This document shows positions 12,809 through 32,741 of a stretch of DNA of 64,000 nt, piece after piece. The notes under the pieces are model-generated. The model saw only the letters and a program-made list of their open reading frames with translations. It was not told where the DNA came from and ran no database searches. The position numbers were made by a program, and so were the translations under genes. Origin of the DNA: a virus; the IMG/VR virus record IMGVR_UViG_3300037264_001145, positions 55,616-119,615 of that record, one strand, 5' to 3'. Positions within the stretch are counted from its first letter, which is position 1, and every line of letters starts with the position of its first letter.

Positions 12809-12868
12809 TATTTTTCCTAATTCGTTATAAGTTGACCATTATCGGTTAAAATTGTTACTTTTATCAAT

Positions 12869-16815: not shown

Positions 16816-18570
16816 TCAAATTAATTTTCGAAGATCTGTAATAATTATTGATCCATTCTGTTTATGTCCAAAAATCATACAAACTAATGTGTCTTTACAA
16901 AGTCCATGAATTTTCTCATAAGTGTCTGGAAAAACTACCGCATGATCAATACTGTACGAAGAATCAGATATTGTAAGAAAACACATTGGCGCACCAGGAT
17001 TTTTCCCCTTCTTTGTCTTGGTGTGTTTTACGGAATCTATTACAGCACAAACCGAAAAACTTTCGCCGTTCAAAGCCTTAATTAAATCTAAACAATTGTG
17101 TGAAGCAGCACTATCATCTGCGTCGTCAGAAGGAGAACAACTTAAAGAAATACCAAGGAAATATTTTTCTGCTGTTGATTTACCAAGATTCGTGTCTATT
17201 TCATCTTTTGCTAATTGATTCAATTTACCTTCGATGACTTTTAATCTTTTCGGCCCGACGCATGATTTGGAGGAGGATTCGTCATAACCATTTTCTTTTA
17301 ATTTGTTGATAATATCAAGCTTGGTCATTCCAGAAAAATCAAATGTTTCCCCTAGAATATTTTTAGACCATCCTATAATATCATCTTTTTTCATAGACGA
17401 TAGAGACTTGCCTGGCATTTTTGACGCTTGTTCAACCATTTCGGTTAGAACATCTCTCATAGTTTTGTCGTCGCCATCGAACAACTTATCAAAAAACCAA
17501 TCTCTCTCCTTGTCTGTCAAGCCCCTAATTTCTTTATTTTTACCATCCTTGTCCCTGACAGACGTGCCAAATAGAATTTCTAGTTCTTTTACCATTTGCG
17601 ATCTTTCCATTTGGTAACAGTCACAGGCACCGGATTTTATTAAAGCAATCCCAACGCTTCTATGGATAAGAGGTAACGATTTTAAAAACTCGTTCCACGT
17701 AGATAAAGATTCCTTGCTTTGTTCTACGATTTTAGATATCGCAGATTGACCAACCCCCCTTATATTTGAAAGACCAAATTTTATACCGCTGTCTATCATT
17801 TGGAAGTGGACATTACGAACCCTAATATCGGGCGGAAATACATCTATCCCAAACAATCTTGCGTCCTGTACTAGCTTATAGACCTCTTCTTTGGGATCGG
17901 ATTTGTAATTAGAGAATGTTAAATAACTAGTAAAAAATTCGTTTGGAAAGTGTGTTTTTATCCAAGCCGTTGTATAACTAAGCATCCCATAACTTATGGC
18001 GTGGGATTTATTAAAAGAATATCTTTGACTTTTTTCAATCCATCCAAAAATTTGTTTTGCTGTATCTGTTGATACCAATCCTTTTTTAAGACACCCATCT
18101 ATGAATTTGATTTTTAATTTTGCCATTAGCTCTGGTTTTTTCTTACCCATGGCTTTTCTTAGTTCGTCTGCGTTCTCTAACGAGAATCCCGCAACTTCTG
18201 TTGCTATTTTGATGGCTTGTTCCTGATAGACCAAACAACCGTAAGTGTCGCCCAAAATATCTTTGAGACGTGGGTGCAAATAATTGGGTTGTTTTCTACC
18301 AAATTTTATATCTACGTATTCTTCAGATTGTCCACTTTCTAAACAACCCGGCCTCACCAATGCGGTCAGCGCAGCTAATTCCTGAATATTTGATGGCTTG
18401 ACTTTTCTAGCCCATTCTTGTCCAAGTCTAGTTTCCAGTTGAAAAACACCCGTAGTAAAACCAGAGGATATTAGTGCCCAAACCGCAGCGCAATCTAATG
18501 ATATATTATTTGAATCGAATTTGCCTTTTTCGACTTGGCAATCACAAGAAGAAAATTTAATCGTGTCCAT
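16816..18570 (-). CDS. dnaE: DNA polymerase III alpha, C-terminal half (fingers, HhH, OB fold)
   Basis: GVFQLE, LVRPG, TYGCLVYQEQ, ADELRKAMGKKK, YSFNKSHA, PPDI, FGLSNIRGVG and a C-terminal OB fold. No catalytic aspartates. Confidence 0.93.
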   Translation of the reverse strand: MDTIKFSSCDCQVEKGKFDSNNISLDCAAVWALISSGFTTGVFQLETRLGQEWARKVKPSNIQELAALTALVRPGCLESGQSEEYVDIKFGRKQPNYLHPRLKDILGDTYGCLVYQEQAIKIATEVAGFSLENADELRKAMGKKKPELMAKLKIKFIDGCLKKGLVSTDTAKQIFGWIEKSQRYSFNKSHAISYGMLSYTTAWIKTHFPNEFFTSYLTFSNYKSDPKEEVYKLVQDARLFGIDVFPPDIRVRNVHFQMIDSGIKFGLSNIRGVGQSAISKIVEQSKESLSTWNEFLKSLPLIHRSVGIALIKSGACDCYQMERSQMVKELEILFGTSVRDKDGKNKEIRGLTDKERDWFFDKLFDGDDKTMRDVLTEMVEQASKMPGKSLSSMKKDDIIGWSKNILGETFDFSGMTKLDIINKLKENGYDESSSKSCVGPKRLKVIEGKLNQLAKDEIDTNLGKSTAEKYFLGISLSCSPSDDADDSAASHNCLDLIKALNGESFSVCAVIDSVKHTKTKKGKNPGAPMCFLTISDSSYSIDHAVVFPDTYEKIHGLCKDTLVCMIFGHKQNGSIIITDLRKLI

Positions 18571-18575
18571 ATTCT

Positions 18576-18584
18576 ATTATACCA
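18576..18584 (-). promoter_or_regulatory. Extended -10 promoter (TGGTATAAT), probably giving a leaderless dnaE-C transcript
   Basis: Perfect TGnTATAAT ending 5 nt before the ATG at 18570; no SD sequence. Confidence 0.55.
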
Positions 18585-18602
18585 GCAAAGCCATTAGATT
18601 TG

Positions 18603-18803
18603 TTAGCCGTCGTACATTCCAAGCAATCTGAATCCGCCTCGTCGGTCCCTAACGTAATCTGTGCCAGGACAACCTAGAGGATAATAGGTTTTACTAACGC
18701 CACAGTTTTTTATACATTTTATTGTGATTCTATCTGTACAAGATTTATCGTGATCTATTACAAAAATACTGCCACAAGCGCATCTATATTTATGTTTTTT
18801 CAT
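18603..18803 (-). CDS. Small Cys-rich protein
   Basis: CACG...CIKNC; 66 aa; overlaps the previous stop. Confidence 0.5.
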   Translation of the reverse strand: MKKHKYRCACGSIFVIDHDKSCTDRITIKCIKNCGVSKTYYPLGCPGTDYVRDRRGGFRLLGMYDG

Positions 18804-19791
18804 TTTTATCTCTTATCGACCCTAAAAGTCTTAAAATATCAAAACTCCCATCCGAAGATACTGGCACTATCTCTTTTATTCTATCGGGAAAATGATCCCA
18901 ATAAACGATACTTTTACCACTAACATCTTCTTTCCATGGTGTTGTTAATTTAATCGCGTCCGTTAAATAATTTACCAATAATGAAAATGAACCTTGGCCA
19001 GATACAAATATGTCGGATGCGACAAGATGATAAAATGTTGAAAATACATCTTCGTCTATGTGTAATTTTATTTGTCGTTTGTCGGGAAGACGGTGCGATG
19101 ATAAAACTCGCTTTTCTTTCTCTAACATATCCCATACATATATGTGGAATGTAATGTCTTGTAGCTCTTTCATGTTGCTCAAATTTTCTATTATTTTGAA
19201 ATAATGATCAAGGCCCATCCATCTTCTATATCCATTTGCTTCTGTGACATCGCCTCTTCGGATGTGAATTCCAATATTTGTTGTGTCTTTGTCGAAATAA
19301 CACTTAAAATTTTTGACTTGTTTGGAGTTATTGTATTTTCGTTTTAGGTCGTTGTTTTCATAAATATCCCAGTCTATATCAATAAATTGTCCATCTGCCT
19401 GGCTACTTACTCTAAATAGAACATCGAGATCTTGGTTAAGCCCAGGATCTTGTATTAACTTCGCAAATTTTATATCGTCCCATGTAGTTTTTCCTTTCCA
19501 CAACCAAGGAAGTTCTATCTCTTTACACCCCTTGGGAACATCACTTGTCGCCAGTTCGCCTTCGTGAAAGTTTAAAAAATCATTCCACGCTTTCACTGGC
19601 GTTGTTATTTGATAGAAGTTTGTTCCTTTTCTGTCAAACGTTCCATCTGTTTCTCCCTGAAATGGCTGATAAACGAATTTTAGATTATATTTTTTAGCTA
19701 AAGTATATGGCACTAAAAAATTGCTAAATTGATGGCCTATTCCTGCTGCTCCACCATTATTAGCCTTCGGGTTAGATACTATGTATTTCAT
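18790..19791 (-). CDS. GT11/GT23-like (fucosyltransferase-fold) glycosyltransferase
   Basis: GIGHQ, GIHIRRGD and FVSGQGSFS motifs. Confidence 0.8.
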   Translation of the reverse strand: MKYIVSNPKANNGGAAGIGHQFSNFLVPYTLAKKYNLKFVYQPFQGETDGTFDRKGTNFYQITTPVKAWNDFLNFHEGELATSDVPKGCKEIELPWLWKGKTTWDDIKFAKLIQDPGLNQDLDVLFRVSSQADGQFIDIDWDIYENNDLKRKYNNSKQVKNFKCYFDKDTTNIGIHIRRGDVTEANGYRRWMGLDHYFKIIENLSNMKELQDITFHIYVWDMLEKEKRVLSSHRLPDKRQIKLHIDEDVFSTFYHLVASDIFVSGQGSFSLLVNYLTDAIKLTTPWKEDVSGKSIVYWDHFPDRIKEIVPVSSDGSFDILRLLGSIRDKNEKT

Positions 19792-20474
19792 TGTGGTTTA
19801 ATCCTTTCAAATAAAACATTACATGTATTAGTGCGAAGCTTATTGAAACCTGGCAACAATTTTACCAGATCTCTTTCGTAAACTCCATCTTCCCACATAT
19901 TCCCGGTACATTCTGTATATAAGTATTTTGTTATTTCTAGAGTTTCTTTTGCCCCATCAAGGAATTTGCGTTCTGCGCCATTAACGTCTGCCCATATTAA
20001 ATCTATGTTTTTTATTCCTTCTTGTTTTATAAAAGTGTCCAATCTTCTACCAAAAACACTAACTCCTTTTCCAAAAGGAATATCTGGATGTGCCCTCAAA
20101 TGTTCTTTTGGTTTATTTAAAGATCCAGAGCCGCTCCAGTCTGTTATTCCCTCCTTAATCCAATGTGGAACCCCATGGCTTTCGTAAAAAATAGTTGGTC
20201 CATCAACATCTGATATTGCTTCTTCTATCAACTTATATCTATCTCCGCAGCCCCATAATGTAGACTGGTTTTCTGACAACTCCTTGATCTTTTTTATATT
20301 TCTTGGGTCTGGTTCAAAGCTAAATACCTTGGACTTTGGAAAAACACTAAGAAAATTTCTTGTGTCCTTTCCGTCATAAGCCCCTATTTCTATAATCAAC
20401 GGGTTATCTTTGTTAATTAACCCGCCTATATATCTAATTATGTCTAGATTCATATTATGGTCTACGCTTGTCAC
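19788..20474 (-). CDS. FkbM-family methyltransferase
   Basis: IEIGAYDG, FEPDP, IDLIWADVNGAE and YLYTE motifs. Confidence 0.9.
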   Translation of the reverse strand: MTSVDHNMNLDIIRYIGGLINKDNPLIIEIGAYDGKDTRNFLSVFPKSKVFSFEPDPRNIKKIKELSENQSTLWGCGDRYKLIEEAISDVDGPTIFYESHGVPHWIKEGITDWSGSGSLNKPKEHLRAHPDIPFGKGVSVFGRRLDTFIKQEGIKNIDLIWADVNGAERKFLDGAKETLEITKYLYTECTGNMWEDGVYERDLVKLLPGFNKLRTNTCNVLFERIKPQ

Positions 20475-21007
20475 TTTTCACACTCCGTGTTTAAGCTTAT
20501 CAGTGTCCCGTTTTCAAAATCCATTTTTGGAATATAGGCGCGAGAACAATCGTCATGTTGTGAATGCTCCGTGTTTCTCCAATCCCACAACCTAATATTT
20601 TTGAATCCTATTTTTTCTAACAAATTTTTTAAAGAAACAAAATCGTAGCATGTTTTATGATATATTGTTCCGTCGCCCATTTGCATTTTTCCATAAAGCG
20701 GCCCCAAGAAATTATCTAACGAGAACATCCTTGAAAAATATAAGCGTACCATTTGTTCAAAATCTGGAACAGCTAAACGAAGAGTTCCTCCTTGTTTTAA
20801 AACCCTAAACCATTCCTCTAACACAAGCACGACTTCCGCTCTGTCGAAATACTCAAGAACATGAGAAGCATAAATTATATCAGCAGAATTATCTCCAAAA
20901 GGTAACTTTGTGACATCGTGAGAATGTAGGTATGGGAAATCTCCTCCGTCTATGCTTGTCCAGTCTGATCCAAAATCTCTTTTCCCACACCCCAAATGAA
21001 GTTTCAC
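20471..21007 (-). CDS. Class I SAM methyltransferase (type 11)
   Basis: KLHLGCG, IYASHVLEYF and RVLKQGGTLRLAVPD motifs. Confidence 0.9.
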   Translation of the reverse strand: MKLHLGCGKRDFGSDWTSIDGGDFPYLHSHDVTKLPFGDNSADIIYASHVLEYFDRAEVVLVLEEWFRVLKQGGTLRLAVPDFEQMVRLYFSRMFSLDNFLGPLYGKMQMGDGTIYHKTCYDFVSLKNLLEKIGFKNIRLWDWRNTEHSQHDDCSRAYIPKMDFENGTLISLNTECEK

Positions 21008-21423
21008 TATATGAACTCCTTGTCTTCTGTTTGGCCGTGATACGGCCCCGTTTTGTATTCGTACACAACCGTATCGTCATCTAACGACATATAGTTATGA
21101 CCGCCCTCTAGTGTGATAGAGCAATCCAAAGAATGCAATACTATGTCATCCCTCAAAATCTTATTGTCGATATCGTACAGGGTAACTTTTACCCTTCCTC
21201 TTAAGACAACCCACGACTCCTGTGCAATCTTGGTTTCATTAGAATTTTTCCATTTATGTTTGTGTGGTTTAAAAGTTTGAAGTTCACGAAGTCTGATTGT
21301 TGCCATCTGTATAAAATTATGACAAGGCACAACATCTTCTCTTCCTTCTTGAATATCAAGAAACCTATTTATTATATGTAAAAGCTTTCCTGGTATAACT
21401 TTTGAATATATGTATTCTGCCAT
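21007..21423 (-). CDS. Cupin-fold protein (WbuC-like, sugar-nucleotide cluster)
   Basis: PHKH, QESWVVLRGRV, GGHNY and YEYKTGPY motifs. Confidence 0.75.
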   Translation of the reverse strand: MAEYIYSKVIPGKLLHIINRFLDIQEGREDVVPCHNFIQMATIRLRELQTFKPHKHKWKNSNETKIAQESWVVLRGRVKVTLYDIDNKILRDDIVLHSLDCSITLEGGHNYMSLDDDTVVYEYKTGPYHGQTEDKEFI

Positions 21424-21430
21424 AATTTAT

Positions 21431-22459
21431 TTACTTTACTCTAATGGCCCCTGTCCACTTACTGCTCGATTGTATGCCTGATTTTCCGTAGTAACCAAGC
21501 CAGTATTCAACCATCTCATCCAATAATGTTTCAAACGTATATTTTGGTTTCCATCCAAGAATAGTCCTTACTTTTGTAGAATCTCCTCTTAGAAAGTTTA
21601 ATTCTTCTGGTCGTAGAAGTCTTGGATCTTGAACAACAAACTTTCTATAGTCCATACCAAGTTTACCGAAAACATAATCGCAAAGTTCTCTAACAGAATG
21701 GGCTTCGCCAGTAGCAACGGTAAAATCATCTGGTTCTTTGTGGCTTAGAATCATTTGCATCGCTCTTACATAATCATAACTGTGTCCCCAGTCTCTACTT
21801 GAATCCATATTTCCAAGCGTCAAAGTTTTTGTTAACCCAAGACTTATTTCTACCGCCCCCATGACAACTTTAGAAGTTACGAAATTACTTCCTCTGCGTG
21901 GGGATTCGTGGTTGTGAAGTATTCCATTAGAACAGAATAAGCCAAAGGCTCGGCGATAATATCTTACCATATTAAAACTAAAAAGTTTAGAGCATCCATA
22001 GACACTCACCGGGTCTTTTGGTGTCGTCTCTCTTTGAAATTTATCTTCGTCAAAATTATTTCCGAAAATCTCAGAGCTACTTGCTTGATAGAATTTAGCG
22101 CTTGGAGCAAACTTACGAAAAGCTTCTAGCATATTGGCTACGCCCAAAGCATTAATTTGTACTGTATAGATTGGTATATCCGCACTTATTCTTACGTGAG
22201 ACATAGCACCCAAATTATAGATTTCGTCTGGTTGTGATTCTTTTATGACTTTTTCTATGGAAGACCCGTCAGACAAATCTCCATAATAGGTATTTAACCT
22301 TTTAGATAAATGACATATTCTACTGTCCTGATTTTCTGCTACACTATGTCTGCGCAACATTCCATGAACATCATAGCCCAAATCCAATAAATGTTCTGCT
22401 AAATAAGAACCGTCTTGTCCACTTATACCAGTAATAAGTGCAACTCTTTTTTTGCTCAT
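21431..22459 (-). CDS. gmd: GDP-mannose 4,6-dehydratase
   Basis: ALITGISGQDGSYLAE, YQASSSE, YGCSK, NHESPRRG and RDWGH motifs. Confidence 0.97.
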   Translation of the reverse strand: MSKKRVALITGISGQDGSYLAEHLLDLGYDVHGMLRRHSVAENQDSRICHLSKRLNTYYGDLSDGSSIEKVIKESQPDEIYNLGAMSHVRISADIPIYTVQINALGVANMLEAFRKFAPSAKFYQASSSEIFGNNFDEDKFQRETTPKDPVSVYGCSKLFSFNMVRYYRRAFGLFCSNGILHNHESPRRGSNFVTSKVVMGAVEISLGLTKTLTLGNMDSSRDWGHSYDYVRAMQMILSHKEPDDFTVATGEAHSVRELCDYVFGKLGMDYRKFVVQDPRLLRPEELNFLRGDSTKVRTILGWKPKYTFETLLDEMVEYWLGYYGKSGIQSSSKWTGAIRVK

Positions 22460-23529
22460 TTTACACCTTTCGTGTCTGTATAAACCCTTTTTATTATCTT
22501 ACATATTCTTCGAATTTGCCTACTCGTCAAATCTAAGCTCGACGGTAAATATACTAGTTCTTCGGATATTTCTTTTGCGCCTGGAAATTTAGCTCTTGTT
22601 TTATATACTGGGTTGTCCGAAATACATTTATAGTATTTTGTTGCTTGAATATTTTCTGATTTTAATGCTTCTATTATTTCGTTGGCAAAATGGGTTCTGT
22701 AGACCACCATCCACAAACTTTCTTTGTCTATTGTATTCGGAGAAAATCTGTAAGGTCTAATCCCGTTTATGTAATAGTTATTGAAAACTTGCCATCGTTT
22801 TTCCAGTAGGACTTTAATATCCCTTAATTGACTTAGAACATAACTTGCTTGAATATCACTGTATCTAAAATTGACGCCAATATGCTTGTGTAGACGATCT
22901 TTTCTCCATTGATCCCCATGGTCCCTGATCTGTCCTAATCTTTTGGCTACCTTGTCATCGTCCGTCACCACAGCCCCGCCCTGACCCCCTGTAATCAATT
23001 TAGGGACACTAAAGGAGAACACCCCTACATTTCCTGTCCTGCCCGCATACGGCATCCCAATTGACTGGCATGAATCTTCTATTATTGGTATGTTATGTGT
23101 ACTACAGAATTTTTTAACAGCCCCAATATCATCTCCGTAATATGCGTTGTGATTAACGAATATTACACAACTGATGTTTTTATTAAATTTCAATTTATCT
23201 ACATCTATACAAAGCGTGTATGGATTTATGTCTACAAGCTTTACTTTATATCCCATGAATCTGGCCGCATTTGCTCCCGCCAAGAAGGTGTAGGCGGGGA
23301 ATATAATTGTAGACCCCCTTGGGAGTTTAAGGGCTTCAATAGCCATGATTAGCGCAACTGTTCCGCTCGTGGTTGTAAAGCAATATTTTGAACCAGTTAA
23401 TTTCTTGATTTCTTCTTCCAACAAAAGACATTCTGAACCCGGACCCAAATTGCCTTTGCGAAGAGTTTTAAATACAGCCCATGCATCTTTGAATCGACAT
23501 AATGGACTAAATTGAGATATTTTTTTCAT
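22456..23529 (-). CDS. DegT/DnrJ/EryC1 sugar aminotransferase (perosamine synthase-like)
   Basis: TSGTVAL, IEDSCQ and FSFSVPKLITGGQGG motifs, with the PLP lysine retained. Confidence 0.93.
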   Translation of the reverse strand: MKKISQFSPLCRFKDAWAVFKTLRKGNLGPGSECLLLEEEIKKLTGSKYCFTTTSGTVALIMAIEALKLPRGSTIIFPAYTFLAGANAARFMGYKVKLVDINPYTLCIDVDKLKFNKNISCVIFVNHNAYYGDDIGAVKKFCSTHNIPIIEDSCQSIGMPYAGRTGNVGVFSFSVPKLITGGQGGAVVTDDDKVAKRLGQIRDHGDQWRKDRLHKHIGVNFRYSDIQASYVLSQLRDIKVLLEKRWQVFNNYYINGIRPYRFSPNTIDKESLWMVVYRTHFANEIIEALKSENIQATKYYKCISDNPVYKTRAKFPGAKEISEELVYLPSSLDLTSRQIRRICKIIKRVYTDTKGVK

Positions 23530-24344
23530 ACTAAAACTTTTTCATTTAAACTATTATACAATTCTATTAGTTTGTTATTTGCACAATCTTCTGGACTGAA
23601 ATGCATCAACTTCTTGTCTGCAAAATTTTTGTCTATTCTATGTCCTACGAAATCTGACAATGTTTGAACACCAATCCCATTTGCTAAATTTCCACAATTA
23701 ACAAAAAACATATCTAGGTTTGAATAGTGGTGCAAGATGTATGTATATGTATTAAACCATAATTTTTCGAGGAAATCTTTATTTGCAACAGTTGCTTGTA
23801 AATATTCCGCATTTTTAATTATGTGAGATATGCTTTGCAGAAATTCTGACGGATGCCTAAAGACACAAATAAATTTACAGTTTTGTAAATAAGGAAGCCA
23901 AACAGGTAGGGTATATGAGAATCGCGGGTCTTTGAATAGAAATGGTTGTACGGAAATTAGTTTGAGTATTCTTTCTTGCACGCTTGCATTTACATACGCG
24001 GGATCAATGTTTTTATGACGAGGATTGCGGCGAGAATCTTTGTCAAATAGAAAGCATTCATTAAGTTTTTTAGATTCTGTAATCACTGTGTCGGTCTCTA
24101 AAGTAGCAAGCCATCCTTGTGGTGAGTTTACTTTTGTTCTTATCACATCTACTTTTGGACACGACCATAGAATATCGTCATTCAAGCCATTTACTAATGG
24201 TGTTTCAAAATATCCTTTTTCATTAAATTTATCTGCGAGGTTCCCTGCCCCCCCGATGTTATAGCTTTGTCCAGAAGTAATTGCTCCGGCCACAAGGCTA
24301 GTTCCACTTCTTCCGCATCCAAGAATTATTATATTCTTAGCCAT
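23526..24344 (-). CDS. Sulfotransferase
   Basis: ILGCGRSGTS PAPS-binding loop, KDPRF and FRHP motifs. Confidence 0.88.
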   Translation of the reverse strand: MAKNIIILGCGRSGTSLVAGAITSGQSYNIGGAGNLADKFNEKGYFETPLVNGLNDDILWSCPKVDVIRTKVNSPQGWLATLETDTVITESKKLNECFLFDKDSRRNPRHKNIDPAYVNASVQERILKLISVQPFLFKDPRFSYTLPVWLPYLQNCKFICVFRHPSEFLQSISHIIKNAEYLQATVANKDFLEKLWFNTYTYILHHYSNLDMFFVNCGNLANGIGVQTLSDFVGHRIDKNFADKKLMHFSPEDCANNKLIELYNSLNEKVLV

Positions 24345-24549
24345 TATTTTCTCGTTCTTGGATTTCGTGTTCCATACTAGCTACTTGCCATCCAATTCTC
24401 CAGTCCATGTAATCGTTTTCTTCTACCCCTTTGTCGTATGGATTGACAATTAAACCGTCACTGTTGGTAAAAGCGTCTTTGCCTAATCTGAAAGCTTTTT
24501 CGTTGAATAAATTTGGCGAATTAACCATTTTTCTTTTCCCATTCATCAT
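24337..24549 (-). CDS. Small protein with ribosome-modulation-factor-like motif
   Basis: G..AF...G...NPY......W..GW pattern. Confidence 0.45.
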   Translation of the reverse strand: MMNGKRKMVNSPNLFNEKAFRLGKDAFTNSDGLIVNPYDKGVEENDYMDWRIGWQVASMEHEIQERENNG

Positions 24550-25354
24550 AAAGGTAGTTGGGATCTCCTTCTCCCCATTCGACCCCTTCGTTTCTTACTA
24601 TACCTTCTCCACGTTTTTTATTATACAAAATTGTATTATTTCTAAATCTTTTTTTATCTTCCGTATCGGTGTAAACTTGAGGCTTTGGGTGCCAGAGATG
24701 AATTGGACGACAATTTTGATCAAAATATTGTGCTAATCCTGATTTCATTAATCTGTTGTGCATATCAGCATCAACATACCCATATGTTTTGAAATCTTCG
24801 TCATAACCACCAAGTTTCCTAAAAGCTTCCATTGGGGCACAGTGACCAAAATGCCAGCATACGTAGCTTCTTTCGTCTATTTGGTGTTCATGAGTTCTTT
24901 TTTGCAATTCTTCTGCGTTAATTTTACCACTAAAATATAAGTCCGTATCCTTTTTTTCACAAGAGTACGAGAGTCCGCCGCAACGATATAAAACTTCAGG
25001 ATGATCAAAACATCCTTTTATGAAATCTCCAGTATAAAAAAGCTCTGGATCTTTTTGGGCAAGCATTTTTGATTGTCCGTATTTGATTACAATATTTCTC
25101 ATAAAAGCGTCTCCGCGCTCCCACGGTGGAGATCTATCGAAAGTAAAATAATGTAGATTTTTTGCTTCTAGGTCTGAAAAATCTTCATGAATACTATCGT
25201 TAGCTACAAGGATCATCCATTTATCTGATGGAACAACAGTTTTTATGAGTGAGTCTAATACTCTTCTAATGTAATTTCCACGGCCAAAATTTGGTACGAG
25301 CAAGATTAAATCTCTATTTGTTATAGACCAATCAAAAGTTTTGTGTGTAATCAC
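24521..25354 (-). CDS. GT-A glycosyltransferase (GT2/GT7-like), paralog 1
   Basis: VPNFGR, AND, KDPE and GGYDEDFKTYGYVDADM motifs. Confidence 0.85.
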   Translation of the reverse strand: MITHKTFDWSITNRDLILLVPNFGRGNYIRRVLDSLIKTVVPSDKWMILVANDSIHEDFSDLEAKNLHYFTFDRSPPWERGDAFMRNIVIKYGQSKMLAQKDPELFYTGDFIKGCFDHPEVLYRCGGLSYSCEKKDTDLYFSGKINAEELQKRTHEHQIDERSYVCWHFGHCAPMEAFRKLGGYDEDFKTYGYVDADMHNRLMKSGLAQYFDQNCRPIHLWHPKPQVYTDTEDKKRFRNNTILYNKKRGEGIVRNEGVEWGEGDPNYLYDEWEKKNG

Positions 25355-25355
25355 T

Positions 25356-26123
25356 TTATCCTTCCCCCCAATTAATCTTAAGATTTCTTACAACGTTTTC
25401 GTCTCTTTTTTGAGAATATACGTCTTTCATTCCTTGATGGTTAGTGTTTATAGGTCCATGCCACAAATGAATTGGACTACAACTTTCGTCATAGAATGGT
25501 TTTAGTCCACATTTAAGCAATCTGTCATACATATCATGATCTTCTGGTCCATATGATTTAAAATCTTCATCGTAGCCATTAATTCTTCTAAAATAATCTA
25601 TTGGTACGCAATGACCATAATGCCAATAAGTATATGTATTTTTCGGTATTGTAAATTTTATAGATGCCCGGATCAATTCTGCTTCGTCTATGAACCCGTT
25701 AAAAAAACTATGTTTTTGATATTGTTTGGTTACGTATGCCAATCCCCCACATCTGTATAAAACATCTTGGTGATCTAAACAACCTTTTATAAAATCTCCT
25801 GTAAATAAAATTTCAGGATCTTTTTGTGCAAATAGCTTACATTGACAACGTTTTATGGCTATGTTGCGAATAAAAGCACCGTTACGTTCGATAAGAGGAG
25901 ATCTTTCAAACGTAAAATAATGAACATTCTTCCATTGCAAATCTTCTAGTGGTTCGTGGAACCCATCATTGATAACCAAGACTACCCACCTATCTCTTGG
26001 AACGGATGTTCTAACTAAATTATCTATAGTTCTTTGTATATAGTCCGCTCTTTGAAAGTTCGGTATAAATATAACTAAATCTTTTTTTGTTACATCCCAA
26101 TCGAAATTCTTAAAGGTTGTCAT
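25356..26123 (-). CDS. GT-A glycosyltransferase (GT2/GT7-like), paralog 2
   Basis: IPNFQR, IND, KDPE and NGYDEDFKSYGPEDHDM motifs; collinear with 24521..25354. Confidence 0.85.
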   Translation of the reverse strand: MTTFKNFDWDVTKKDLVIFIPNFQRADYIQRTIDNLVRTSVPRDRWVVLVINDGFHEPLEDLQWKNVHYFTFERSPLIERNGAFIRNIAIKRCQCKLFAQKDPEILFTGDFIKGCLDHQDVLYRCGGLAYVTKQYQKHSFFNGFIDEAELIRASIKFTIPKNTYTYWHYGHCVPIDYFRRINGYDEDFKSYGPEDHDMYDRLLKCGLKPFYDESCSPIHLWHGPINTNHQGMKDVYSQKRDENVVRNLKINWGEG

Positions 26124-27097
26124 GTTTTTACCCCCTTAACAACTGTGTTTCCAAGAGGGCCGATATATTTTACTAGATTATGTTTTGTTAATAGTAGTTG
26201 TGCGTACTCATTTGCTCTTTCGGCCTTAACTTTTTCATAAAACTCATTTTTCCCGTCAAGTTTATCATACCCACCACCGCCACATGGGTGAAAATGATCT
26301 ACTGTAACCCTATCACAATGAGCAACTTTTATTTTCTTAAAAGCTCTCAAAAAGAATACGCTATGTTCAACTACTTTAAAATCATCATCATATCCACCAA
26401 ATGCTTGAATCGCTTCTTTTTTACCCATCCAAAAAGATAGAACTATATCGACCACTGGACAACCGAATTCAATTCCTTTATCTCTTCTCTCAAAGTGAGC
26501 TATTCCTCTCGCAAGTTCCGTTTCGTTAAGACACCCAAAGTAATTAGCAAATCCTGTTACATTTCCACCCACCAAGTCTATGTTTGAATTTTCTAATATA
26601 TTTAACCATATTTCTAGTTGTGTGTGTGCTGTAAAAATAAAATCGTCGTCTAATGAAACAACATACGGGGTTGTAGCTGCGGCCATTGCTCGGTTTTTCC
26701 CATAAGAAATTCCGCTGTTATACGGCAACTTAAGAAAAGTAACATTTGGTCTTGTATTTTTAGACGGCACTCTGCTATCGTCAGCAACAATAATTTTAAT
26801 TCCTGGATAAAATTTGTCTATGCTTTTAAGGAGCCTCTCTAAACACTTAGGTCTTTCGAAGGCTTTGATCATTATTGTAACATTATCAAGCGATCCTTTC
26901 ATACCATCTCCTTTACAAAATTCTATCGGCGGAGAAATAACAATTTGTATTCCTTCTCGTATTACAGTAGCGGCTGGAAGCGTGGAAATTTGTTCCAAAA
27001 CAGAGTCTACCGTAATCGGAACTGGAGTCAAAGCCGGAGCTAATCTTCTTTGTTTCTTTTCTTCTCCAGTTAGTTCGCGCCTTTGATCATGCTTCAT
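26120..27097 (-). CDS. GT-A glycosyltransferase resembling B4GALNT1/2 (GT12-like)
   Basis: KAFERP...SI...YP...IIVADDS, TTPYVVSLDDDFIF, DLVGGNV and EHSVFF motifs. Confidence 0.75.
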   Translation of the reverse strand: MKHDQRRELTGEEKKQRRLAPALTPVPITVDSVLEQISTLPAATVIREGIQIVISPPIEFCKGDGMKGSLDNVTIMIKAFERPKCLERLLKSIDKFYPGIKIIVADDSRVPSKNTRPNVTFLKLPYNSGISYGKNRAMAAATTPYVVSLDDDFIFTAHTQLEIWLNILENSNIDLVGGNVTGFANYFGCLNETELARGIAHFERRDKGIEFGCPVVDIVLSFWMGKKEAIQAFGGYDDDFKVVEHSVFFLRAFKKIKVAHCDRVTVDHFHPCGGGGYDKLDGKNEFYEKVKAERANEYAQLLLTKHNLVKYIGPLGNTVVKGVKT

Positions 27098-27098
27098 A

Positions 27099-28286
27099 TT
27101 ATTTCCTTAAGAACAAGACCGCAGCCCTTTTTTCGTTACAATAATCGTCTTCTTTTCTCATAACAGAGGAGCATGACAAAAATGGGGTTAATCGGTGTGC
27201 TACGAATCCGCTATCTCTAAACCTTTTAGTAATATGATTTATGTCTGGAAGTTTAAGGCTCTGGTGAGTATCAATGTTACCAAAAAATACATCTGTTCTG
27301 GATTTGAGTGCGTTGGTTCCAATCTTAGTGTCTATTAAAACGGCCTCTTTGCTGGACGCAATAAGTTGGTCGATAAGGAAATCGTGTTCTTCTATATGAT
27401 GAAAAATTCCCGCGCAAATTGTAAAATCGAACTTCCTTCCGTAGAAGGTATTTTGCCAAAAGGCAGGATCGAGAATATCACAATTGATAAATTCATACCT
27501 GTCTTCTGGCAAGAACTGATTTGAACTCCAATACAAGAGACCTTGAAGAATGTACTTGTTTCTTCCCTCTAGTGCAGTTAAACTTTTCGCACCGTATCCC
27601 GCATACTTAGAACTCCAATAAGATACGTTGGACCCAATATCTAATATACTCTTGTCTTTAAAATCATATTTATTTACTACTTGATTAACTAGTAGATTTT
27701 CTCTATATGTATTTCTTGCAGATAATTCTTGTGGAGACCGGGGGGTGCCGACACCTGGGATAACCGTTTCCCCTCCTATTTTTAATGGGTAATACCATGG
27801 ATTAAGCATGTTAATAACATGATTTACATTTTGAACCCTTTTCTTTATTTCGCTAGAAGATACGCCTTTGTAGTAGGGTAGTGTGACAATCCTTGTATAA
27901 TGCGGAATGCTGGATTTAATACTTTCCCTAAGTTCGTCATCGTGAGACTCGCTTTCCACAACAACATCTGGTTTTATGTGTAATATGTTTTTGACGGGAG
28001 AATATGTGTCTTGGCAAACTACTAAATCCACATATTTTATAGACTCTATTACCCTAACTCTTTCGTCCATCGACATGATTGGAGGATTTTTTCTCTCCAT
28101 TACCGCTTCGTCTGTCAAAACTCCGACAACCAAGATGTCGCCTAAAGCCTTGGCATTTTTTAGATGAAGCACATGTCCGTAGTGAATTATATCTCCACAG
28201 ACATAAGCATAAACTATTATCGGATCGGCTGATTTCTTATGCACGGTGGATTTCCACAGTGCCATCCCTTTACTGGCGTCTTCCAT
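27099..28286 (-). CDS. Cytidylyltransferase fused to a class I SAM methyltransferase
   Basis: N-terminal GDIIHYGH (HxGH) and LVVGVLTDE motifs; C-terminal ILDIGSN, LTALEG and CAGIFHH motifs. Confidence 0.85.
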   Translation of the reverse strand: MEDASKGMALWKSTVHKKSADPIIVYAYVCGDIIHYGHVLHLKNAKALGDILVVGVLTDEAVMERKNPPIMSMDERVRVIESIKYVDLVVCQDTYSPVKNILHIKPDVVVESESHDDELRESIKSSIPHYTRIVTLPYYKGVSSSEIKKRVQNVNHVINMLNPWYYPLKIGGETVIPGVGTPRSPQELSARNTYRENLLVNQVVNKYDFKDKSILDIGSNVSYWSSKYAGYGAKSLTALEGRNKYILQGLLYWSSNQFLPEDRYEFINCDILDPAFWQNTFYGRKFDFTICAGIFHHIEEHDFLIDQLIASSKEAVLIDTKIGTNALKSRTDVFFGNIDTHQSLKLPDINHITKRFRDSGFVAHRLTPFLSCSSVMRKEDDYCNEKRAAVLFLRK

Positions 28287-28798
28287 TCTCCGTACTGCTC
28301 CTTAAGATATTTTTCTATTTGTTTTACCACATTAACCTTCACACCCTTAAATTCCACTTCTTCAAATTCGTCGAAAACATCAGGAGAATAACAATAATAC
28401 TTCTGCCCAGCATACCAAACTGAACACCATGTACAATTGACCCCTCTGTAATGAATAAACCATTCAATTTTAACCCTATTCCTGATAAAAGAAATCTCCA
28501 TACCGATGTTTCTATTACCAAGTACGTGAGCAAGTTGAAATCCTCTTGCCTTCATTTCATCTATAAGTTCCTGTTGTTTTAAATCGGTAAGATCAGAAAT
28601 ACTTGCTCCAAGATCAATATCGTCATCGTGGGCAATAAAATCTTTTTCTCTATAATAGCCAAGGCACGTACCGCAAGTAAGCCATGTGAATAGACCAATT
28701 TTATTCGCTACTTCGTAAGCGTCTCTTAAATTATCGGTAGCATCTTTCACAACCTTTGGATCAGAACCAAACAATGGCGCTACCATCCCGTTATCCAT
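28217..28798 (-). CDS. licD: LicD-family nucleotidyltransferase
   Basis: WLTCGTCLGYYRE.DFIAHDDDIDLG and YL..QYGEWKTP motifs. Start taken at MDNG (28798). Confidence 0.85.
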   Translation of the reverse strand: MDNGMVAPLFGSDPKVVKDATDNLRDAYEVANKIGLFTWLTCGTCLGYYREKDFIAHDDDIDLGASISDLTDLKQQELIDEMKARGFQLAHVLGNRNIGMEISFIRNRVKIEWFIHYRGVNCTWCSVWYAGQKYYCYSPDVFDEFEEVEFKGVKVNVVKQIEKYLKEQYGEWKTPVKGWHCGNPPCIRNQPIR

Positions 28799-28799
28799 A

Positions 28800-29585
28800 T
28801 CAAATTCCCCTTCCCCATTCACAACCACCATTCGCTACCACGTCTAGTCTTTGCAAATCTTGTTTATATGTAGATTCATTGTCTAATATTGTCTTATGAA
28901 ATCGTCTCATTATAGGATGACCTATGTGATAAGTAGTTGTTTCTTTATCTATTAACACAGGCGCTCCTGATTTCTTTAGTCTTTCGAGCATTTGCCAATC
29001 CTCATACCCATAACCAGCTCTATACTTTTCATTATACCCGCCCATATCTTTTAATTTTTGTGTTCTTATACAACAACCAGCATGAAAAGCCTGATTTCTT
29101 TTATCGCTTGCTTCCCATTGTCTTAAAATTGGTAATTTGGTTAAATCAATAAATGGATTGTCAATTATTCTTTGTGTATCACACTCATTTAATTCAACCA
29201 TTCCTCGCGGTCTGTAAACAACATCGTTAAGACCCAAGATCTTAGAAATCATATCTCCTTCTATAATAATTTCTGGATCTTTTGTAGCAAGCCATTCGCT
29301 TTGACACCGTTTTATTACAAAGTTTCTAATCATACACCCATTACGTTCATCAGCGGGATCTCTCTCGAACGTAAAATATCTTAGATTAAAGTCCCGCTCT
29401 AAATCTTCCATTGGTTCATGCGGGCCATCGTTGACAATTAAAAACATCCATTTGTCTTCTGGAACAGAAGTCTTGAATCTCTTGAGGGTTGGGATTAAAA
29501 GATGTTTTCTTTTGAAATTGGGCACATAAAACACCAAATCCCTATTGGTACAAGACCAGTCAAAATCAGTTGCCGATTTGAACAT
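28800..29585 (-). CDS. GT-A glycosyltransferase (GT2/GT7-like), paralog 3
   Basis: FDWS.T..DLVFYVPNF, VND, YFTFER, KDPE and GGYNE...GYGYED motifs. Confidence 0.85.
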   Translation of the reverse strand: MFKSATDFDWSCTNRDLVFYVPNFKRKHLLIPTLKRFKTSVPEDKWMFLIVNDGPHEPMEDLERDFNLRYFTFERDPADERNGCMIRNFVIKRCQSEWLATKDPEIIIEGDMISKILGLNDVVYRPRGMVELNECDTQRIIDNPFIDLTKLPILRQWEASDKRNQAFHAGCCIRTQKLKDMGGYNEKYRAGYGYEDWQMLERLKKSGAPVLIDKETTTYHIGHPIMRRFHKTILDNESTYKQDLQRLDVVANGGCEWGRGI

Positions 29586-29937
29586 ACCTCGTCGTTTTCC
29601 TTACCTCTACCTTCCTTGTCAAGCTTTCTTTCTTTTCAAAGCAGCCGTCGCAGATAGCTCCTTGAATCCTATAATCCCTATGACTCATCATATCCTCTAA
29701 TTGATCAAACTTGCTACCATAACCAAAATGTATTTCTATTGTTCCACCTTCTAAATTGGGTAACAAGCCTTCGTCGTCGTTCCCTGGTCCATTTGGATCG
29801 AACGGTATTTCTTTCTCGCAAACTATGCATCGCCATTCCCGCGAAGTAGTTGGTCTATTTCTACGCACAGGCTCGTCCTGATGAGGACAACAAACATTTG
29901 CTTCACACCCACAAGAATTGTATGTTTTTTTATCCAT
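29566..29937 (-). CDS. Hypothetical Cys-rich (zinc-binding) protein
   Basis: CIVC...CDGC pairs. Confidence 0.55.
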   Translation of the reverse strand: MDKKTYNSCGCEANVCCPHQDEPVRRNRPTTSREWRCIVCEKEIPFDPNGPGNDDEGLLPNLEGGTIEIHFGYGSKFDQLEDMMSHRDYRIQGAICDGCFEKKESLTRKVEVRKTTRYVQIGN

Positions 29938-30403
29938 ATATTATATCCTCAAACCCTTCCGATAAATCTGGTTTCTCCAATTGTTTATTTAATTCACAAA
30001 TTACACTGTCGGGAACTTTCTTTTCGTTTCTTCGAAAGTTGTGTTGCAAACAAGAACCCAAGCTTTTGTCAAAATATAAAGCTATGATTTTAAATCCAAA
30101 AGCTTTACCAAATTCAATCCAATAAGTCCTACTTTCTTTATTTATAAGCCACGCACTCTCATCAAGTATTATACTAAGATTTGGATTTTTGGATAAAGCA
30201 AAAATTATATGGCCGACAATTTGTTTTAAATAATCTTCTTTATCTTTATTATATTGTTCTTTGTAGAACGCTAGTCTGAAATCATCTACCGAAATAACAA
30301 CAATATTTTTTTCTCTTTCGGCTATTTTTCTTGACGCCGTTGTTTTACCAGATGCTGGCGGGGCTACGGTTAAATACAAGTACCTAGTCATCAACCTCAA
30401 CAC
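29930..30403 (-). CDS. P-loop kinase (AAA_33, polynucleotide-kinase-like)
   Basis: APPASGKTT, SVDDFR, IILDES and RR...VPDSVI motifs. Confidence 0.85.
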   Translation of the reverse strand: MLRLMTRYLYLTVAPPASGKTTASRKIAEREKNIVVISVDDFRLAFYKEQYNKDKEDYLKQIVGHIIFALSKNPNLSIILDESAWLINKESRTYWIEFGKAFGFKIIALYFDKSLGSCLQHNFRRNEKKVPDSVICELNKQLEKPDLSEGFEDIIYG

Positions 30404-32741
30404 CTTCCTGTATTTCGATACTGCTATCTATTCCGTTGATCAAGTCTTGTGCTAACCACACTTTGTCCAAGGCAACAACCCCAAGAAAGTCGAACTTTAC
30501 ACATCCAAGAGCTTCACTAGACTCCATTTCTAAGCCAACAATTCTCGTCTTGTTTTTGGGGTCGTAAATAAGAGGCACGAGGTCATTAATTGGTACATCT
30601 GCTATAACGAGACCTGCTGCGTGACGGCTTTGTGATTTTTTAGTTCCTTCCAATCTCATACTTTGATCAAATAGTGGTTTGTACCACTGATAATATTCCT
30701 TCATTTTTTCTATGTTATCAATACTCCAATTTAAAATACCGTAACTAGAATTCTCTGTTTCTTTTCGTATTTTTTGTAAATCATCTATGATCGAAGCTTC
30801 ATCTGGCATTAAACCAGTAATTTCATTGGATAAATCAAATGGGGTCATAGAGACTTCGTTTGGATTCTTGCCCTCTTTTGTTGCCTTAACTTTCATTAGA
30901 TGTTTAACTAAATCTGGCTGGGCACGGAAAACTTCTTTAAGAGCGGCTTTTCCTTGAAGTCTACCGAACGTGACCATTTGAGAGACCTTATCTTCGCCCC
31001 ATTTGTTAATCAAATATTCAACAACTTTTTCCCTAAACACCACACCAATATCCATATCTATATCGGGAAGACTAATATGGCCAGGATTTGTTTGGACGGA
31101 TTTGTTTTCATCCAACTTGCAACACATCCTTAATGCATCCACGATATGTGAATTATTTGGATTTGGAAATTCTAATCCCAAAACCTGGTCCTCTGATGAT
31201 GAACACATTGTTTGATTATTTTTGAATACTTCTAATATATATAACCACATCTTTGGATTATTATTATCTATCCAATCAGCTTCTTCTTTAAGTAATTTTT
31301 TATTATGTATACTTTTGTATTTTAAATTACATTGGATAATTAAATTCTTTATTATATTTCTTGTATCATCAATTTTTTCTTGAGTTATAGAATCGGAATT
31401 ATCTGATAACCATTCCATGAATGTTGTTGGCCCGACATCAAAGTGTGGTGGTATATTTCTTCCATGATTATAGAATCTTTCCCAATATAAATCATACTCA
31501 ATAGGATCTATTCCAGTTATATTTAGTAGATAATTAACCAAAGATCCTGCGCCAGAACCTCTTCCTTTTCCTCTTGGAGCTTTGTTTTCGTCAACAAATT
31601 TACAAGCATCATAAACAATTAGAAAATAGTCCGCAAGTCTAGCCTCTTTGATAACGGACAATTCCCTAAGCAGTCTTGTCCAGTATATTTTTTTCTTGTC
31701 CATTGATAGGTTGGACAAGATGTTTTTGGCTCCTTGAACACATAATTTTTTCAGGTAATCATCAGAAGAATCATTGTTGGGAGTTTGGTATTTAGGTAAG
31801 CAAGGTTTCCTTCCAATGCTTGTAGATTTTATCATATCGGTAATTACAAGCGTTTGTTCCATTTCGGATTTGCTATAGTGTTCCTGCATTTCTTCTGGAG
31901 AGAATATATAGAATGTATCTCGGAAGAAAAAGGACATGGTATCTGCGCCCTCTCCTTTAAGTCTAGCTTGTTCCTCTGCCGTTGTATGAAGTTGGCTATA
32001 CAGAAGTATTCTATGATCTTCAACCTGCTCCCTTTTGGCATAATGTGCATCTAACGTACAAGCAGACGGTACATCCAAAGCCTTTGATACTTCTCTCAAA
32101 CATTCCACGGCAACTTTTTGGGCTGGCATCCCTTCTTCCTGTAATTCTATGAAGTAGTTTTCCTTACCAAAAATTGAAATATATCTAGCAACAATTTCGT
32201 CGGCTATATTTCTCCAATTCGGTTTGAGTAACTTTCTAACTTCGTCCATATCTTCTGTTTGTTCGCCTATTAAACACGCCTGACCGACATCTGTGAATAA
32301 AGATTCTGATAATTCACCGATGATACAACCACTCAAACATATTAAATTGCGATTTTTAGTAAAGAGATGTAAATTATCTACGCCAATTCTAGGTTTTCTG
32401 TAAAAGTGCTCTGGTTGATTGGTGTAGCTAACAAGAGACATTAGTTCTTTTATACCATCGTCGTTTTTGGCCAGGATTGTTAAATGGTTGTGGGACTTAT
32501 TCTCGTTGGTTTTAATGGTTTGATCAAGTTTAGACGTATATATTTCACATCCGTAGACTGGTTTGATTCCATATTTTTTGCAAGCTTTTTGAAAATCAAC
32601 CATTCCAGAAACATTGCCATGATCTGTCAGAGCACAAGCTGGACAACCAATTTCTTTTGCTCTTTTAGCAATTTGTTCGGGACTTGAGAGGCCGTCTAAA
32701 AGACTAAACCAACTATGAACATGCAAACAACTATAACACAC
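30384..32741 (-). CDS. dnaE: DNA polymerase III alpha, N-terminal half (PHP, palm, thumb)
   Basis: HVHSWFSLLDG, TDHG, GCE, DAHY, GRGSGAGSLV, PDIDMD, HAAG and VKFDFLG motifs. All three catalytic Asp are present. Confidence 0.95.
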   Translation of the reverse strand: MCYSCLHVHSWFSLLDGLSSPEQIAKRAKEIGCPACALTDHGNVSGMVDFQKACKKYGIKPVYGCEIYTSKLDQTIKTNENKSHNHLTILAKNDDGIKELMSLVSYTNQPEHFYRKPRIGVDNLHLFTKNRNLICLSGCIIGELSESLFTDVGQACLIGEQTEDMDEVRKLLKPNWRNIADEIVARYISIFGKENYFIELQEEGMPAQKVAVECLREVSKALDVPSACTLDAHYAKREQVEDHRILLYSQLHTTAEEQARLKGEGADTMSFFFRDTFYIFSPEEMQEHYSKSEMEQTLVITDMIKSTSIGRKPCLPKYQTPNNDSSDDYLKKLCVQGAKNILSNLSMDKKKIYWTRLLRELSVIKEARLADYFLIVYDACKFVDENKAPRGKGRGSGAGSLVNYLLNITGIDPIEYDLYWERFYNHGRNIPPHFDVGPTTFMEWLSDNSDSITQEKIDDTRNIIKNLIIQCNLKYKSIHNKKLLKEEADWIDNNNPKMWLYILEVFKNNQTMCSSSEDQVLGLEFPNPNNSHIVDALRMCCKLDENKSVQTNPGHISLPDIDMDIGVVFREKVVEYLINKWGEDKVSQMVTFGRLQGKAALKEVFRAQPDLVKHLMKVKATKEGKNPNEVSMTPFDLSNEITGLMPDEASIIDDLQKIRKETENSSYGILNWSIDNIEKMKEYYQWYKPLFDQSMRLEGTKKSQSRHAAGLVIADVPINDLVPLIYDPKNKTRIVGLEMESSEALGCVKFDFLGVVALDKVWLAQDLINGIDSSIEIQEGVEVDD

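Follow-up and report, generated by a model that had tools for sequence, protein, structure and literature searches.

The DNA analysed here, a window of 64,000 nucleotides (bases 55616-119615 of the 119.6-kb IMG/VR record IMGVR_UViG_3300037264_001145, which is estimated to be ~71% complete), comes from an uncultured phage of ~170 kb and encodes the alpha subunit of DNA polymerase III (DnaE) in two open reading frames (ORFs). The DnaE domains are not on one polypeptide: the two ORFs, which have a start and a stop codon each, are separated by 11.8 kb, and together they tile one full DnaE that is cut at the linker between palm and fingers. The space between them is filled with a cassette of glycan genes. 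We consider it quite probable that the two ORFs encode a two-chain C-family replicase that goes back to one ancient fission, that the gap serves as a cargo site, and that the halves are the likely crossover points around it. The halves and their landmarks are the following (aa, amino acids; AF2, AlphaFold2):

30384..32741, minus strand: dnaE-N, the PHP, palm and thumb of the Pol III alpha subunit, 785 aa
31089..31463, minus strand: lineage-specific palm insertion of ~125 aa between ERFYN and GHISLPDID, seen as a gap in the Taq alignment
31050..31067, minus strand: PDIDMD motif with the first two catalytic Asp residues (equivalents of E. coli D401/D403), checked in the translation
30480..30497, minus strand: KFDFLG motif with the third catalytic Asp (equivalent of E. 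coli D555), ~30 residues before the end of the N-half
30387..30434, minus strand: acidic C-terminal tail of the N-half, 16 aa (GIDSSIEIQEGVEVDD), after the last palm helix
16816..18570, minus strand: dnaE-C, the fingers, the helix-hairpin-helix (HhH)/beta-binding region and the OB fold of the Pol III alpha subunit, 584 aa
18490..18570, minus strand: N-terminal head of the C-half with the CxC...LDC cysteines (MDTIKFSSCDCQVEKGKFDSNNISLDC), from the AF2 model and motif comparison
18001..18015, minus strand: FNKSH fingers motif, uninterrupted, C-half residues 186-190, read from the translation

The N-half matches the Pfam families PHP (1.7e-41) and DNA_pol3_alpha (5.3e-61) and spans residues 7-626 of Taq DnaE (2HPI); its AF2 model, computed for the half alone, has a predicted local distance difference test score (pLDDT) of 90.9. 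The C-half matches DNA_pol3_finger (7.5e-48) and HHH_6 (1.6e-13) and aligns with residues 642-968 of Taq DnaE, its residue 22 corresponding to residue 588 of E. coli DnaE. Modelled alone it reaches pLDDT 94.8 and ends in a beta-barrel, and a Foldseek search with this model matched 7PU7, 4IQJ, 3E0D and 5FKU over the full length, from the fingers through the OB fold; the OB family tRNA_anti-codon was matched by the C-half of one relative. Since one alignment stops at Taq residue 626 and the other resumes at 642, at most ~15 linker residues are unaccounted for. A reading of this stretch made earlier from the sequence alone (hereafter the sequence-only reading) had held that the split loses almost nothing, and this is borne out; its positions and strand for the two halves are exact and its junction sequences agree with ours. 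The fingers of E. coli DnaE, we take it, begin near residue 561, which places the cut in the palm-to-fingers linker.

Both halves keep the residues expected of a working polymerase. The N-half has a PHP domain with all nine metal ligands (D16, H41, E66, H86, C139, D231 and H233 are kept, and the HxH motif is visible in the sequence) and a complete Asp triad. D560, D562 and D564 together with K749 and D751 are invariant in two alignments of N-half homologues, and H190 is invariant in the alignment of the C-half, which also bears YQEQ and LRKAMGKK. Across 20-65 diverse homologues the catalytic and PHP columns are invariant or nearly so. The palm insertion, which lies just before the catalytic PDIDMD and has no Pfam match, is predicted by AF2 to form four helices; it occurs in most of the ~170-kb lineage and is absent from genome G038 and from the ~620-aa N-halves of the wider family.

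The layout is common to five independent assemblies. The close relatives G001-G004 (N-half 63-74% identical) come from different samples; both halves lie on the same strand in G002 and G003, 13.25 and 13.7 kb apart, and in G001 and G004 the contig ends 8.4 and 12.6 kb past the N-half. The cassette genes of these relatives are syntenic with those of the window at 40-82% identity, and the flanking genes for a helicase, a primase, a dNMP kinase and a PD-(D/E)XK nuclease have diverged to a similar degree. In 45 IMG/VR contigs of the lineage the C-half always lies on the same strand as the N-half and downstream of it, and is never fused to it; it is present in 31 of the 45, and in all ten of those that are at least 90% complete. 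All 27 contigs of the lineage with both halves have them split. In every relative the halves start and stop at codons of their own. The N-half, searched against a database, gave at least 120 clusters (50-84% identity), nearly all of them stand-alone proteins of 740-810 aa, on contigs of up to ~180 kb; a few clusters of ~1140-1158 aa carry an internal intein. In three distant genomes (G043-G045, loci L058-L060, ~35% identical) the N-half has ~586 aa and the C-part is spread over two more open frames, with 1.3-1.6 kb between them; DnaE may be in three pieces there.

The 119.6-kb record contains no second DNA_pol3_alpha locus, and five complete relatives have one palm locus each. PolA, PolB and a beta clamp were found neither in the record nor in four complete relatives. 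Because both halves are intact, the catalytic motifs are invariant and this is the only polymerase found in the complete relatives, a non-covalent two-chain polymerase appears to be the best reading of the split.

The split extends far beyond the lineage. A search of 1.84 billion representative proteins with the C-half gave 23,456 matches, of which the best 150 are mostly stand-alone C-halves of 500-700 aa (longer where they carry inserts) and a few fused proteins (1040-1400 aa). With a profile made from 30 such C-halves, at least 527 stretches were detected in IMG/VR; 80 loci were fetched from these, 74 were resolved for both parts, and 70 of the 74 are split and four fused. In this wider family the N-half typically has ~620 aa and the same end point as in the window, the median gap between the halves is ~865 bp, and 68 of the 70 gaps hold an RNase_T/DnaQ-like gene of ~230 aa (phrog_192), usually behind an ORF of 59-80 aa.

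Trees were computed from 1114-1135 HMM-match columns of N plus C with FastTree (99 rows) and IQ-TREE (48 rows); the root was placed at two fused DnaE proteins, those of Moorella phage MTATph1 and Streptomyces phage Hydra. Fused forms are basal in both trees. All split forms, with two nested fused proteins on long branches, fall into one clade (98-99% support), in which the lineage of the window is monophyletic with 100% support. These trees are most simply explained by a single ancient fission, with re-fusion on occasion afterwards. The split is older than the lineage of the window and was not caused by the cassette. Other clades of the wider family carry different cargo at the same site: an RCC1-repeat protein in one case, an aldehyde dehydrogenase, a class-III aminotransferase, a UDP-glucose-dehydrogenase-like gene and a saccharopine dehydrogenase in L128:3332-9260, and opposite-strand Mtd_N-like and LRR genes in L131:1635-9324.

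In the window the gap (18571-30383, 11.8 kb) contains 17 ORFs. Every one is on the minus strand, and most of them overlap or abut. In the order of the strand they are:

29930-30403, minus strand: P-loop kinase
29566-29937, minus strand: unknown
28800-29585, minus strand: similar to glycosyltransferase family 2 (GT2-like)
28217-28831, minus strand: LicD
27099-28286, minus strand: cytidylyltransferase
26120-27097, minus strand: GT2
25356-26123, minus strand: GT2
24521-25354, minus strand: GT2
24337-24549, minus strand: ORF of 70 aa
23526-24344, minus strand: sulfotransferase
22456-23529, minus strand: DegT aminotransferase
21431-22459, minus strand: GDP-mannose 4,6-dehydratase
21007-21423, minus strand: unknown
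20471-21007, minus strand: methyltransferase
19788-20474, minus strand: FkbM methyltransferase
18790-19791, minus strand: unknown or weak glycosyltransferase
18606-18803, minus strand: Cys-rich ORF of 66 aa, directly upstream of dnaE-C

The labels come from Pfam and PHROGs, together with synteny with G001-G005. Eleven of the 17 are sugar or glycan enzymes by Pfam (E <= 0.01), namely the four GT2-type transferases, LicD, the cytidylyltransferase, the sulfotransferase, DegT, the GDP-mannose 4,6-dehydratase and the two methyltransferases; one further ORF has a weak match to a glycosyltransferase PHROG. The 17 co-oriented ORFs counted by the sequence-only reading are thus all present, and its figure of 13 glycan enzymes was slightly generous. 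No homing endonuclease is recognisable among the 17 by Pfam and PHROGs, and flippase and polymerase families had no match among the ORFs scanned. Three of the transferases are paralogous GT2/Glyco_transf_7C-type genes (24521-26123 and 28800-29585, minus strand), and two of them, in tandem, are ~71% identical over stretches of 140-170 nt. The Cys-rich ORF is kept in G005 and has no obvious kinship to the 59-80-aa micro-ORF with an 'SCC' motif in the wider family.

Within the lineage the gap, taken as the distance between the end of the N-half and the first position of the C-half (for those genomes that were also measured by script, the values agreed within 0.2 kb), spans 0.98-18.2 kb:

G007, G008, G039 and G009: 0.98-1.03 kb
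G032: 2.0 kb
G014, G017 and G023: 5.0-5.1 kb
Fifteen others: 6.8-12.3 kb
The window: 11.8 kb
G002 and G003: 13.2-13.7 kb
G038: ~17 kb
G005: 18.2 kb

Clustering of the gap ORFs gave at least six layouts, five of them largely of sugar or glycan genes and the sixth, in the 1-kb gaps, with a Macro and a UDG gene:

Type A (the window, G001-G005): kinase, GT2 genes, LicD, cytidylyltransferase, sulfotransferase, DegT, GDP-mannose dehydratase, methyltransferases
Type B (G013, G026, G037, G042): GT9-like, GT1-like, radical-SAM methyltransferase, PfkB kinase, methyltransferases
Type C (G015, G020, G021, G030, G040): HAD phosphatase, aldolase-like, cupin (mannose-6-P-isomerase-like), kinase/nucleotidyltransferase, TylF methyltransferase, Caps_synth transferase
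Type D (G024, G035): cytidylyltransferase, radical SAM/SPASM, GT2 genes
Type E (G014, G023): methyltransferase-like gene, Caps_synth transferase, three further methyltransferases
Type F (1-kb gaps of G007 (L063:2367-3378), G008, G039 and G009; 143-kb members of the lineage): Macro-domain gene and UDG-superfamily gene

Every multi-kb layout sampled in the lineage is rich in sugar genes, and the Macro and UDG genes of the 1-kb gaps have no homologue in the window by BLAST. In the polymerase tree types B to E are intermixed: G026 (type B) groups with G021 (type C), G042 (B) with G014 (E), and G035 (D) with G030 and G040 (C). A blastn comparison of G042 and G014 found homology confined to the N-half (71%) and the C-half (73%), whereas the intervening DNA, 10.6 and 5.0 kb, is unrelated. 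Cargo recurs at this site, and in this lineage the multi-kb cargo consists largely of sugar genes and varies in composition; the distribution of the cassette types may reflect exchange of cassettes between relatives. The gap of G005 (L061/L062, G005:C1:55000-79000) is swollen by repeated genes of ~200 aa, with seven copies of a family that was sampled as NUMOD4 plus HNH, probably homing endonucleases to judge from these domains, and two copies of a family without a Pfam match.

These comparisons qualify the notion, put forward in the sequence-only reading, that the split point is a landing pad for exchangeable cassettes. The content between the halves does vary; in the wider family it is typically an exonuclease gene and a micro-ORF, and in the lineage one of the cassettes listed above. 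The glycan cassette, however, neither made the split nor is special to it, and in the subclade of the window it is stably inherited.

Three further groups of genes outside the gap bear on its interpretation:

16275..16766, minus strand: SSB gene directly downstream of the C-half (Pfam SSB, 1.9e-18)
11798..15747, minus strand: three conserved glycosyltransferase-like genes downstream of the C-half, SSB and a sigma gene (phrog_2170)
53209..53775, minus strand: DnaQ-like 3'-5' exonuclease, ~20 kb upstream of dnaE-N (PF00929 match)

An SSB homologue also follows the C-half in G002 and G003. Between SSB and the glycosyltransferases lies a sigma-70 region-2 gene (15740-16294, minus strand), which is a further local insertion, as G002 and G003 have no homologue at this position. 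The exonuclease of the window and the one between the halves in the wider family both belong to phrog_192 ('DNA polymerase exonuclease subunit'), and their direct similarity is weak. Throughout the lineage the gap is free of an exonuclease gene. Ten ORFs upstream were scanned: they include RecA, a PD-(D/E)XK nuclease, ClpP, a trypsin-like protease and a weak phosphoesterase, and five are without a family match. None matched a hydroxymethylase or thymidylate-synthase-like family, which would have pointed to a role of the cassette in DNA hypermodification; the scan speaks neither for nor against such a role.

We propose the following scenario. Chain N would contribute PHP, thumb and the palm with the Asp triad, and chain C the fingers, the HhH duplex-binding region and the OB fold, with the cut in a surface linker between palm and fingers. 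The chains would be made separately, probably from one long minus-strand unit that runs from dnaE-N through the cassette to dnaE-C, and would associate non-covalently through the native palm-fingers interface, perhaps assisted by a Cys-rich beta-hairpin on chain C and a flexible acidic tail on chain N. The fission would be a single event, older than the separation of the lineage from a very large aquatic phage family in which a DnaQ-type exonuclease gene is retained between the halves. From the fission onwards the gap could presumably take insertions without damage to the enzyme; in the ~170-kb lineage, with its exonuclease gene elsewhere, it would have become a glycan-biosynthesis island whose modules differ by sublineage. 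The halves are the only homology that flanks the island and are therefore likely crossover points for cassette exchange between co-infecting relatives. The anatomy of the halves, the lack of a splicing device, the conservation, the phylogeny and the variable gap are directly shown by the data; the physical association of the chains, their activity and the mechanism of recombination are what we infer here. A more far-reaching version, in which Pol III alpha is permanently two-chained throughout the family, the halves act as recombination anchors of a swappable glycan island, and hairpin and tail arose as docking elements after the fission, is one we hold only tentatively and would sooner doubt than accept. 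If it is true, the island would correspond, in a virus, to the O-antigen and capsule loci of bacteria, and it might determine the sugar coat of the virion or of some other target.

Several observations weigh against parts of this scenario. The closest cultured phages are at most ~35% identical to the halves. Two fused proteins of 1100-1130 aa, P0261 and P0172, fall within the split clade, either because they were re-fused secondarily or because their rows are misplaced. All genome pairs compared have 70-87% nucleotide identity, so that no breakpoints can be mapped, and no recent cassette swap was caught. In the subclade of the window (G001-G005) the cassette is syntenic and shows the divergence of core genes; any exchange there is on an evolutionary time scale rather than a shuffle still under way. 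Downstream of the C-half, too, there are conserved glycosyltransferases. It is the packing of the genes between dnaE-N and dnaE-C, which overlap or abut, that suggests a single transcription unit; promoter and terminator sites predicted over 15.5-34 kb were no more numerous than in shuffled sequence. A TATAAT box (TGGTATAAT, 18571-18585, minus strand) lies 6 nt before the start of dnaE-C, where no obvious Shine-Dalgarno sequence is seen, and may mark a leaderless or internal start.

The synteny in G001-G005 and the downstream glycosyltransferases also lend themselves to a different explanation, in which the dnaE-C/SSB unit was moved by rearrangement within a larger and mostly vertically inherited glycan region and the site between the halves is not special for exchange. 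The downstream genes have homologues in G002, G003 and G039, and in the last of these, a complete genome whose gap measures 1 kb, the whole set of GT2 and methyltransferase genes comes after the C-half, on its downstream side. We regard this explanation as unlikely, although it deserves to be taken seriously. Close polymerase relatives differ in gap content, with homology that stops at the ends of the halves, and the same site holds unrelated cargo in other clades of the family. The order helicase-primase-kinase-nuclease-N and the order C-SSB-glycosyltransferases are otherwise fixed, and the downstream GT2 proteins of G039 are just 22-29% identical to the GT2 proteins in the gap of the window. 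The cargo site of a two-chain replicase remains our preferred reading.

It is improbable, in our view, that the halves have separate functions, for example PHP exonuclease or phosphoesterase activity in the N-half and DNA binding in the C-half, with the phage replicated by the polymerase of its host. The missing sliding clamp and the full set of PHP ligands would fit such roles. The Asp triad and GRGSGAGS of the N-half and the fingers motifs of the C-half are, however, invariant across a large and deeply diverged family, which is expected only under selection for polymerisation, and polymerisation needs both parts; moreover, the halves always co-occur in complete genomes.

The two halves might instead be rejoined covalently, whether in the protein (an unrecognised split intein or another ligation), in the RNA (trans-splicing or an intron) or through programmed excision of the cassette from the DNA. 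The idea has precedent in the split-intein DnaE genes of cyanobacteria and marine metagenomes (PMC2677866), and relatives of the present halves do carry contiguous inteins. The junctions themselves offer little room for it. The N-half ends in KFDFLGVVALDKVWLAQDLIN followed by the 16-aa acidic tail, which is disordered in the AF2 model (pLDDT 57 dropping to 36). Acidic tails of the VLDEEFVE type end the N-halves across the lineage, the tails of the wider family are much shorter, and some relatives have as little as 2-4 residues beyond the last palm helix. In the C-half ~20-22 residues precede ISLDC...GVFQLE, where the homology to DnaE resumes; a beta-hairpin is predicted at residues 3-14 with pLDDT >90. 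Most split C-halves open with M..F.CxC, followed by 5-25 residues and LDC. This CxC...LDC head is absent from the readable fused or classical DnaE proteins, which have a plain linker of ~10-15 aa instead. The Cys-rich hairpin and the acidic tail may be docking elements of chains C and N.

Tail and head are too short for a HINT fold, and neither half matches the Pfam HINT and intein families, in agreement with the earlier remark that the junctions lack intein hallmarks. Inteins would have shown up in the halves of the window, since the same search gave clear Intein_splicing and LAGLIDADG matches elsewhere in the genes of relatives. Such contiguous inteins sit in the PHP or finger domains of split halves (L080:10615-14484, L068:7482-10097, L076:10270-13098 and L076:63-3506), and several related C-halves have insertions near residue 188, at about the FNKSH position of the cyanobacterial split intein. 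Rejoining by an intron was rejected for lack of an Rfam match. Excision of the cassette was rejected as well: no direct repeats, att-like ones included, join the two junctions (the only repeats come from the paralogous GT2 genes), and Pfam finds no recombinase among the 17 gap ORFs. With the short tail and head, no intein, no intron, no linking repeats and no recombinase in the gap, and with an own start and stop for each half in every relative, covalent rejoining at the level of DNA, RNA or protein is very unlikely.

An assembly artefact, or decayed fragments beside an intact dnaE elsewhere, to which the incompleteness of the record might give some colour, is hardly credible, as the arrangement recurs in assemblies made independently from different samples, and also in complete genomes that have terminal repeats, the record and the complete relatives have one palm locus each, and the ORFs are open, their motifs kept and their folds confident; both had been named beforehand as outcomes that would overturn the split.

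Genes in pieces are already known among replication enzymes, and what is new here is the content of the gap. A two-chain DnaE is widespread and apparently undescribed, and the growth of its gap into a variable glycan island is an elaboration of one lineage. Pol III alpha has been studied as a single chain, and a natural cut between palm and fingers without an intein would offer new material for work on the closing of the fingers and a two-part polymerase ready for engineering. An essential gene, once split, provides a safe and recurrent site for cargo, and glycan cargo amid the replication module links the architecture of replication genes to a probable diversity of surface or virion glycans. 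For annotation, both ORFs should be labelled as subunits of one polymerase and not as a truncated or pseudogenised dnaE.

In the literature searched, we found no description of an intein-less palm/fingers cut of DnaE, nor of a glycan island between the halves. The nearest system is the split DnaE of aquatic phages with an exonuclease gene between the halves (IMG/VR loci L084-L160), which shares the cut, the order, the strand, the CxC...LDC head and the clade in the tree. The window differs from it in that its gap is without the exonuclease (its phrog_192 gene lies ~20 kb upstream) and consists of 11.8 kb of glycan genes instead of ~0.87 kb, and in that its N-half has the additional helical palm insertion of ~125 aa and a longer acidic tail.

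The cyanobacterial split DnaE (Ssp/Npu split intein) and the metagenomic 'fractured' dnaE genes with split inteins and a homing endonuclease (PMC2677866) likewise build the catalytic subunit of Pol III from two genes that may be far apart. They are rejoined by trans-splicing, whereas the window has no intein halves: we found neither an N-intein of ~88-123 aa starting with Cys or Ser nor a C-intein of ~35-50 aa ending with Asn plus Cys, Ser or Thr. Their cut is also a different one, at FNKSH, ~170-190 residues downstream of the cut in the window, where FNKSH is intact.

An experimental precedent comes from T4-related phages, in which gp43A and gp43B of the T4-like phage 25 co-purify and polymerise and the split NrdA of Aeh1 is active (PMC2988022, PMC3045599). 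As in the split PolB of Aeromonas phages 25 and 44RR and in Aeh1 NrdA, a replication enzyme would be formed by two polypeptides without splicing, with mobile DNA at the gap. PolB belongs to family B and the polymerase of the window to family C, and the T4-related split enzymes are found in few phages as against a huge family here. Their pieces are separated by a single homing-endonuclease gene or a short spacer that is not translated, in contrast to up to 18 kb of metabolic cargo in the lineage of the window; a homing endonuclease is not recognisable in the gap of the window, and the relative G005 has the multi-copy HNH/NUMOD4-type genes described above.

T4-like jumbo phages carry a minimal split Pol III alpha core along with PolB (Iyer et al. 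2021, PMC7824862). There, too, two distantly located genes are predicted to reconstitute one enzyme. That version, a minimal catalytic core, lacks PHP and the other domains, is cut within the nucleotidyltransferase/template-binding core and accompanies a family-B replicase, whereas the window encodes a full-size DnaE with PHP that is the sole polymerase found.

Among cultured phages of Bacillales, Rossellomorea phage phiT1 (L163, PV767480.1 9714-12996) has DnaE annotated in pieces cut at the same palm/fingers boundary (gp20 with 573 aa, gp19 with 49 aa and gp18 with 469 aa). They are ~30% identical to the halves of the window, branch outside the split clade and lie ~150 bp apart; gp19 and gp18 are in the same frame with one stop between them, and the pieces may be a sequencing or frameshift artefact. 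In Bacillus phage vB_BceM_WH1 DnaE is annotated in three pieces (gp235-237) with spacers of 0.4-0.7 kb, which might be introns.

For the cargo, the comparison lies with bacteria. O-antigen and capsule loci contain variable sets of glycan genes between conserved flanking genes, and the lineage of the window similarly places non-homologous glycan sets at one site that is bracketed by conserved genes. Unlike in those loci, the flanks are here the two halves of one essential viral enzyme gene.

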